Assembly (NCBI RefSeq): GCF_054482595.1
Contig: NZ_CM137008.1
Length of the DNA stretch: 64,000 bases
Reading direction: 5' to 3' (one strand)
Shown one piece after another: positions 30,169-30,560 of this stretch. Position 1 is the first letter of the stretch. Each line of letters starts with the position of its first letter. Under the pieces are notes generated by a model. That model was given only the letters and a program-made list of their open reading frames with translations. It was not told the DNA's origin and ran no database searches. The position numbers and the translations under genes are program-made.

Positions 30169-30560
30169 AGGGGCTTCATCCGAATTGCGCCATTGTTGCA
30201 ATGGCGGTTTTTATTGTTTTTCACGACAGTAACCGCACCTACACTGTCATGACATTGCTCGCCCCTATGTGTAACAAATAACCACACTGTGAATGTTGTC
30301 TTTAATCAATTGTAAGTGCATGTAAAATACCACTTTAGAGTTAGTCAGTATCTTCCTCTTTTTCAACAGCATGCATAACTGCATGTTCCTCAAAGAATTA
30401 ATCAACTTTTGTTGCTGACCTTCAAAAATTACCCTGCCGTTTATTTGCACAATTCTACTTTTGCGTGATCTGTCGCCCAAATACTAAACAAAACTGCCAA
30501 TACCCCTACATTTAACGCTTATGCCACATATTATTAACATTCTACAAGGAGAACAAAAGC
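30169..30560. promoter_or_regulatory. Divergent nrfA / acs promoter region
   Basis: ~390-bp AT-rich interval between divergent start codons; known in K-12 to carry FNR, NarL/NarP, CRP, Fis and IHF sites. Individual sites not mapped here. Confidence 0.5.

Follow-up and report, generated by a model that had tools for sequence, protein, structure and literature searches.

Here we report that the interval between the divergently transcribed genes nrfA and acs, at positions 30169-30560 of the window (the whole 64-kb stretch of DNA that was analysed), represents, in essentially its K-12 allele, the divergent regulatory region of nrfA and acs in E. coli, and that it very probably works as in K-12, a reading to which we assign a probability of about 0.95. 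A control region of this K-12 type is already known and is not novel; the work on it reportedly came from the laboratories of Busby, Cole, Wolfe and Browning in the years 1994-2017. The window shares with the K-12 region, which holds the promoters pnrf, acsP1 and acsP2, the same flanking genes and their orientation, the contexts of the transcription start sites, the positions of the FNR, NarL/NarP, Fis I, CRP I, and CRP II motifs, and the GGA target of CsrA. The binding of the individual regulators and the regulatory logic set out below are predicted from experiments in K-12, from which the sequence differs only at position 30541.

Identity of the region

Exactly 392 bp separate nrfA on the minus strand from acs on the plus strand, and RefSeq names the flanking genes as nrfA and acs, in divergent orientation, both in strain XH990 and in K-12 MG1655. 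The GC fraction of this gap is 0.385 (38.5%, versus 52.2% in the whole window), in agreement with the preliminary description, which had pointed to about 390 bp of AT-rich DNA between the two genes. Equally AT-rich tiles of 392 bp make up 6.7% of the window; the AT-richness is that usual for intergenic promoter DNA and is not exceptional.

Alignment to K-12, which the same description had named as a check, showed 391 of 392 identical positions without indels (MG1655, NC_000913.3, 4287372-4287763, reverse strand), and the region has not diverged from K-12 with loss of the known sites; the T at 30541 is the sole intergenic mismatch. The sequence of strain XH990 is 100% identical over the region. 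Of 5426 complete E. coli genomes, 5413 contain a match to the region, and the identity is 99% or higher in 4071 of the matching records. Just beyond the interval, a synonymous difference from K-12 occurs at 30566, in the second codon of acs. We also considered a disrupted or rearranged region and rejected it: an IS1 insertion is found in another strain and is absent from the window. From the identity to K-12, the IHF I-III, Fis II-III, and NsrR sites are expected to be present as well. The earlier claim that the interval is a known regulatory hub in K-12 finds its counterpart in the literature, where it is treated as a shared nucleoprotein control region (PMC5434802, PMC3531196).

Promoters and regulator-binding sites

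Positions were expressed in two coordinate frames, one for each direction of transcription. [quoted passage not shown] In that study, the p+102A substitution turns the Arg codon AGG (codon 3) of nrfA into AGA (PMC5434802); the substituted base is therefore the third base of codon 3, at 30160, which sets +1 at 30261. The same position is agreed by the placement of the enterohemorrhagic E. coli (EHEC) -7 change at 30268, by the centre of the FNR site at -41.5, and by the initiating C, K-12 pnrf being known to initiate with this base (PMC5434802). For the acs side, Olvera et al. 2009 print the acsP1 and acsP2 promoter strings that end at the start sites, with the acsP2 start mapped by 5'RACE to a C (PMC2759082). 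Both published strings match the window, with ends at 30337 and 30541, and their lone mismatch is the +1 base of acsP2, which lies on the plus strand 20 nt 5' of the acs ATG. The acsP1 start is 76 bp from pnrf +1 and faces in the opposite direction.

Simple consensus patterns were scanned on both strands, with the whole 64-kb window as background. The scan of the interval gave 8 FNR-like matches versus 3.9 expected and 24 CRP-like matches versus 13.7 expected; raw counts of this kind are modestly above chance, and the weight of the assignment rests on the exact positions of the matches in the two independently anchored frames. Those of the FNR and NarL/NarP matches agree with the published centres at -41.5 and -74.5 from pnrf (PMC5434802), and that of CRP I agrees with RegulonDB, where the proximal CRP site stands at -69.5 and two CRP, three Fis, and three IHF sites are given for acsP2 (PMC3531196). 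The IHF core consensus had no match in the scan at one mismatch or fewer, and at two mismatches or fewer it had 8 matches versus 3.4 expected. A motif scan had been proposed in the preliminary description, which placed no individual sites by eye; it now places FNR, NarL/NarP, Fis I, and CRP by consensus, and IHF is not placeable in this way. A sigma-70 consensus scan of 30000-30700 returned 0 promoter-like sites and is uninformative, because each of the three real promoters either is weak or relies on an activator. The assigned features are collected in Table 1.

Table 1. Features of the nrfA-acs region, ordered by position in the window; mean identity is to the window base in a 24-sequence alignment
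Feature	Position	Strand	Sequence or placement	Basis and remarks	Mean identity
nrfA start codon	30166-30168	-	+94 of the pnrf transcript; ATGACAAGGATAAAA...	Sequence, translation, K-12 and XH990 annotation	
nrfA 5' untranslated leader, 93 nt	30169-30261	-	pnrf +1 to the base preceding ATG		
Auxiliary CsrA-type GGA in leader	30179-30181	-	Adjoins the ribosome-binding region		
Leader stem-loop 2 (predicted)	30188-30206	-	8 bp, CGCCAUUG/CAAUGGCG	MFE fold	
A-rich tract, five AAN triplets	30207-30221	-	AAAAACAAUAAAAAC; separates the stem-loops	A-richness kept across genera	
Leader stem-loop 1 (predicted)	30221-30252	-	10-11 bp stem, 10-nt loop	MFE fold	
ytcB (b4821), 18 codons	30265-30321	-	MHLQLIKDNIHSVVICYT	Placed by alignment from the K-12 annotation (4287611-4287667)	
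pnrf -10 hexamer	30268-30273	-	TACACA; K-12 type, A at -7	Alignment with K-12 and O157:H7 H2495; Godfrey 2017	
Fis I match	30269-30283		GGTTATTTGTTACAC; centre -15.0 (pnrf), overlaps -10	11/15 columns invariant, 24 sequences	
FNR site	30296-30309		TTGATTAAAGACAA; centre -41.5 (pnrf), -34.5 (acsP1)	Best match, 2 mismatches; 12/14 columns invariant	0.97
IHF-core-like match	30304-30316		AATCAATTGTAAG	2 mismatches, weak match	
Candidate IHF I/NsrR zone	30311-30335		Between FNR and NarL/NarP sites	Weak consensus matches, boundaries approximate; 15/17 columns invariant in 30311-30327 (24 sequences)	0.96
NsrR-like 23-mer	30313-30335			6/21 specified bases mismatched, weak match	
acsP1	-10-like 30323-30328; start 30337	+	TAAAAT; start 224 nt 5' of acs ATG	Exact match to PMC2759082 string	
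NarL/NarP 7-2-7 site	30328-30343		TACCACT-TT-AGAGTTA (TACCACTTTAGAGTTA); centre -74.5 (pnrf), covers acsP1 +1	Best 7-2-7 match, 2 mismatches; 14/16 columns invariant (24 sequences)	0.99
Spacer	30344-30374			Poorly conserved	0.48
Candidate upstream IHF/Fis zone	30375-30410		Conserved block AACTGCATGTT (30375-30387 region)	IHF-core-like matches at 30388-30412, 2 mismatches each	
CRP II	30411-30426		GTTGCTGACCTTCAAA; centre -122.5 (acsP2), 53 bp from CRP I	4 mismatches	0.71
Fis-like match	30420-30434		acsP2 -114	Consensus scan	
Conserved block	30441-30455		ATTTGCACAATTC; acsP2 -100 to -86	9/15 columns invariant	0.94
CRP I	30464-30479		CGTGATCTGTCGCCCA; centre -69.5 (acsP2)	3 mismatches; 14/16 columns invariant	0.92
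Fis-like match	30475-30489		GCCCAAATACTAAAC; acsP2 -59, overlaps CRP I	2 mismatches; 11/15 columns invariant	0.94
acsP2 -10	30529-30534	+	TATTAT; -12 to -7 by spacing to the start site	30526-30540 at least 90% conserved, 24 sequences	0.91 (-10 region)
acsP2 start nucleotide	30541	+	T in window, C in K-12		
acs Shine-Dalgarno and ATG	30546-30551 and 30561-30563	+	AAGGAG; ATG	30543-30558 kept in all genera	

For several of these elements, positions have been described: the centre of Fis I stands at -15 relative to pnrf, CRP II is reported at -122.5 from acsP2 (Beatty 2003), and IHF III is reported about 127 bp upstream of pnrf, which would be near 30388 (Browning et al. 2006); a site for NsrR at pnrf is likewise described, as the title of one reference also indicates. 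The two CRP matches at -69.5 and -122.5 fit a class III arrangement. CRP II is weakly conserved, with just its right half CTTCAAAA well kept, and the block ATTTGCACAATTC, judged from its conservation, probably represents one of the Fis sites of acs, of which there are three. The overlap of Fis I with the -10 element of pnrf is as published, and the FNR site centred at -34.5 from acsP1 fits the complete repression of acsP1 by FNR reported for K-12 (PMC5434802). In lineages grown in chemostats, acs is expressed more weakly when the A within CRP I, 93 bases before the ATG (-93), is mutated to T (PMC2763269); the corresponding base 30468 is the wild-type A in the window. On the side of nrfA, the CsrA target GGA (ACAAGGAUA) is present at +100 to +102, that is, at 30159-30161 in codons 3-4 of nrfA (AGG codon, 30162-30160). 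Repression of translation by CsrA through this GGA has been shown in K-12, where more GGA motifs occur in the leader (PMC5434802).

Conservation and related systems

In a scan for NrfA with one genome per species, 34 loci were found. The divergent acs neighbour is kept at 23 of them, in Escherichia, Citrobacter, Salmonella enterica subsp. arizonae, and Intestinirhabdus, whereas Trabulsiella, Serratia, and others lack it. Conservation was assessed as mean identity to the window base in an alignment of 24 sequences from four genera, and reached 0.82 over the whole region. The blocks of FNR, IHF I/NsrR, NarL/NarP, CRP I, Fis, and the acsP2 core span 0.89-0.99, conservation beyond Escherichia is poor for CRP II and for the Fis-like sequence at -114 (0.71-0.73), and the spacer at 30344-30374 takes up extra sequence, about 37 bp in most Citrobacter and Salmonella and 24 bp in Intestinirhabdus. 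The strongly conserved blocks of the alignment match up with most of the mapped sites; it is between them that the variation collects. In the divergent E. coli CREC-36, too, the differences lie outside the mapped transcription-factor sites.

Comparison with pnrf of EHEC O157:H7 revealed the same architecture and sites as in the window, at 99.5% identity. The EHEC promoter has a T at -7 (TACACT in strain H2495), whereas the window keeps the A of K-12 at 30268; the text of Godfrey 2017 prints the EHEC -10 element as TATACT, and reports that the T at -7 confers FNR-independent activity and resistance to repression by Fis in rich medium (PMC5434802). A derepressed pnrf of the EHEC type was rejected for the window on account of its A at -7, which implies that strict dependence on FNR and repression by nutrients should be kept, as in K-12.

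The Salmonella and Citrobacter regions share with the window the synteny, the FNR, NarL/NarP, Fis I, and CRP I sites, the acsP2 core, and both leader stem-loops. Most of their sequences have another base in place of the G at 30319, a change that may reflect the reported loss of the NsrR target in Salmonella. Their regions are longer (420-436 bp), with the insert of about 37 bp in most of them at about 30355 of the window, and an insertion in the upstream region of Salmonella is given in the legend of Fig. 2 of Godfrey 2017 (PMC5434802). They also differ from the window in the sequence near pnrf +1. The same logic is known from the E. coli nir promoter, where FNR binds as a class II activator at -41.5, the nucleoid proteins IHF and Fis repress, and NarL/NarP relieves the repression; this promoter, likened to pnrf here by its description, differs in locus and sequence and is without a divergent CRP-dependent partner.

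Alternative readings of the region

The 93-nt leader of nrfA may itself be a structured RNA regulatory element that acts, besides the control at the DNA level, through Hfq and sRNAs, ribosome loading, or RNA stability, which we regard as possible rather than probable. Both of its helices appear in the single-sequence fold, and RNAalifold independently agrees with them. In the alignment, 98.4% of the helix cells are paired (98.1% for stem-loop 1; 98.8% for stem-loop 2, 21 distinct sequences), versus 24-63% after a shift of the 3' partners by 1-3 columns. Single changes that preserve pairing through wobble are numerous, and 16 further pair types occur, with a compensatory change from AU to GC in one pair of stem-loop 1 (4 sequences) and another from CG to UA in stem-loop 2 (1 sequence). 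Furthermore, CsrA accounts for only part of the downstream repression, and the role of the long conserved leader has been called unclear (PMC5434802). However, the fold of the single sequence is unremarkable (z = -1.65, with 12 of 200 shuffles as stable), double changes affect 2 of the 18 pairs and are matched by shuffles in 235 of 500 cases, and the leader sequences are so closely related that their conservation could reflect constraint on the DNA. No known RNA family was recognised in 29800-30900, where Rfam, searched with a permissive threshold, yielded just a meaningless lncRNA match (E = 0.23), and a review of the control of nitrate respiration records no sRNA found to act directly on nrfA. 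The predicted leader structure thus stands at moderate support, short of proof, and its tract of AAN triplets could bind Hfq or the ribosome. That the leader, whose two stem-loops around the (AAN)5 tract are kept from Escherichia to Citrobacter, Salmonella, and Intestinirhabdus, constitutes an unrecognised post-transcriptional module, working through Hfq and sRNAs or as a structure-dependent translational switch with CsrA, seems to us rather unlikely. The conservation of stem-loop 2 also bears on a reading of the plus strand, where the stem and the T-run at 30207-30216 (30188-30216 in all) would form an intrinsic terminator that stops transcripts antisense to nrfA and insulates the acs promoters. 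It is the sole terminator-like match in 30000-30700, with an 8-bp stem containing 5 GC pairs and the tail GTTTTTATTG, and Citrobacter, Salmonella, and Intestinirhabdus retain both the stem and the T-rich tail. Nevertheless, shuffles of the scanned region give 0.7 such matches by chance, the scanned 30000-30700 contains no promoter-like site or gene upstream of it on the plus strand, and the leader structure on the sense strand explains the same conservation; we consider termination at this place quite improbable.

Two further readings concern the promoter DNA of the interval. The annotated gene ytcB covers the IHF I/NsrR, FNR, and Fis I/-10 elements, and if its 18 codons made a functional small protein, the region would not be purely regulatory. 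The gene is annotated as a CDS in the K-12 RefSeq record, the window and every Escherichia sequence examined keep its frame intact, and two substitutions within it in E. coli are synonymous (CAC to CAT in CREC-36 and ACA to ACT in EHEC). Yet it lies wholly upstream of pnrf +1, so that the known nrf transcript cannot encode it, and the scan of 30000-30700 found no promoter-like site on the minus strand. Of 24 species representatives, 13 have ATA in place of its ATG, its stop moves so that the length of the frame varies between 16 codons and more than 30, codon 11 encodes H, M, L, F, or S, and those N-terminal codons that are conserved lie where the DNA carries the IHF I/NsrR and FNR sites. In the literature, text matches to ytcB were Bacillus genes, and the ribosome-profiling papers examined do not mention ytcB in their main text. 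From the pattern of substitutions, ytcB looks like a by-product of conserved regulatory DNA rather than a conserved gene, and a functional product of it is highly doubtful. On the acs side, the C-to-T difference at 30541 might change the expression of acs or the choice of its start, making the region a functional variant in this lineage. The base coincides exactly with the mapped acsP2 +1, and T is a rare allele among E. coli genomes: the exact 66-mer at 30500-30565 is common to just 20 of 5160 matched E. coli genomes. In addition, the initiating nucleotide and the sequence near +1 affected promoter strength at the neighbouring pnrf (PMC5434802). On the other hand, C and T are both pyrimidines, and the CRP-dependent activation of acsP2 is set upstream of this position. 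The column (T in 3 of 24 species representatives) and its neighbours vary between species next to an invariant -10 element and leader, which suggests little constraint on the base. The change at acsP2 +1 is most likely neutral, and an effect on acs is improbable.

Proposed regulation of nrfA and acs

The preferred reading remains that of a K-12-type control region that serves both genes. The two had been described beforehand as oppositely regulated; this is upheld insofar as FNR activates pnrf and represses acsP1, and is tempered by a 2002 paper that has, in its title, 'independent regulation' for nrfA and acsP1 instead of opposite regulation. By analogy with K-12, nrfA would be transcribed from the single promoter pnrf, whose weak -10 element TACACA would require FNR at -41.5 to be switched on. 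IHF, together with NsrR on a neighbouring or overlapping target, would hold this promoter down, NarL/NarP at -74.5 would relieve the repression by displacing IHF, and Fis bound over the -10 element would shut pnrf in rich medium. The 93-nt leader of the transcript would then come under repression by CsrA at the ribosome-binding region. In the published account, FNR and NarL/NarP activate pnrf, IHF, Fis, and NsrR repress it, and CsrA acts on the leader, with IHF I repressing FNR-dependent transcription and NarL/NarP displacing IHF I (PMC5434802). In the other direction, the weak acsP1, back-to-back with pnrf, would be occluded by FNR, and the major promoter acsP2 would owe its activation to a pair of CRP dimers, one at -69.5 and one at -122.5, against the opposing arrays of Fis and IHF, in line with the description of acsP2 as the CRP-dependent major promoter on which Fis and IHF act as anti-activators (PMC3531196).

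If the leader did prove to be a post-transcriptional module, it would answer the question that Godfrey et al. 2017 raised about the function of the leader. Since the window carries the K-12 allele, what is known of K-12 transfers directly to its nrfA-acs region, a textbook divergent promoter pair in which one nucleoprotein assembly would integrate oxygen, nitrite and nitrate, NO, carbon status, and growth rate.

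Nucleotide differences in the nrfA-acs intergenic region

Comparison with E. coli K-12 MG1655 revealed a single intergenic difference, a C (K-12) to T substitution at window position 30541, the very nucleotide to which the start of acsP2 transcription has been mapped. Among 5160 E. coli genomes, about 20 share this allele, including those of XH990, H5, H6, O157:H16 Santai, and TUM18780.

At the nrf promoter, the -10 element is TACACT in the aligned O157:H7 genome (strain H2495) versus TACACA in K-12, that is, one change, located at -7. The EHEC element is printed as TATACT in the text of an earlier study, the discussion of which also gives a single change at -7 (PMC5434802). 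The printed TATACT is probably a typographical error.

Elements on the nrfA side of the region

The features identified in this part of the region are summarized in the table. The pairing of the leader stem-loops, located in an RNA segment whose role has been called unclear (PMC5434802), is preserved in four genera, with a few compensatory changes. When read on the opposite strand, the terminator-like element is oriented from within nrfA toward acs, and neither a promoter-like site nor a gene on the plus strand was seen upstream of it within the scanned interval 30000-30700.

Features of the nrfA-acs intergenic region
Feature	Window	Strand	Source
Conserved pair of stem-loops in the 5' leader RNA of nrfA, with an A-rich (AAN)5 tract between them	30188-30252	-	
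Stem-loop 2 followed by GTTTTTATTG, resembling an intrinsic terminator	30188-30216	+	
ytcB (b4821) small ORF, 18 codons	30265-30321	-	K-12 annotation

The FNR, IHF I/NsrR, and Fis I/-10 sites overlap the small ORF ytcB, which is located upstream of the sole known nrf start site and is therefore on no known transcript. In 13 of the 24 related species compared, the ytcB start codon is lost. The G of the ATG on the minus strand (window 30319), a position that is also inside an NsrR-like motif, is replaced by A in S. arizonae and most Citrobacter. Loss of the NsrR target has reportedly been described in Salmonella, and the change at 30319 may correspond to this loss.

Insertions, indels, and presence across genomes

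The region spans 392-393 bp in Escherichia versus 420-436 bp in Citrobacter, Salmonella, and Intestinirhabdus, most members of which carry about 37 bp of added sequence; an indel at window position ~30355 (alignment columns 211-247) is located within the least conserved part. A search of E. coli genomes found the region to be absent altogether from 13 complete genomes, and four matches were in plasmid-labelled records.

In E. coli SWYHX138.33gt from horse faeces, an IS1 element is inserted in the intergenic region (positions 2035-3203 of the extracted locus), splitting most of the upstream control DNA away from acs. This insertion is reminiscent of an event in chemostat evolution, in which acs became constitutive through insertion of IS30 (PMC2763269).
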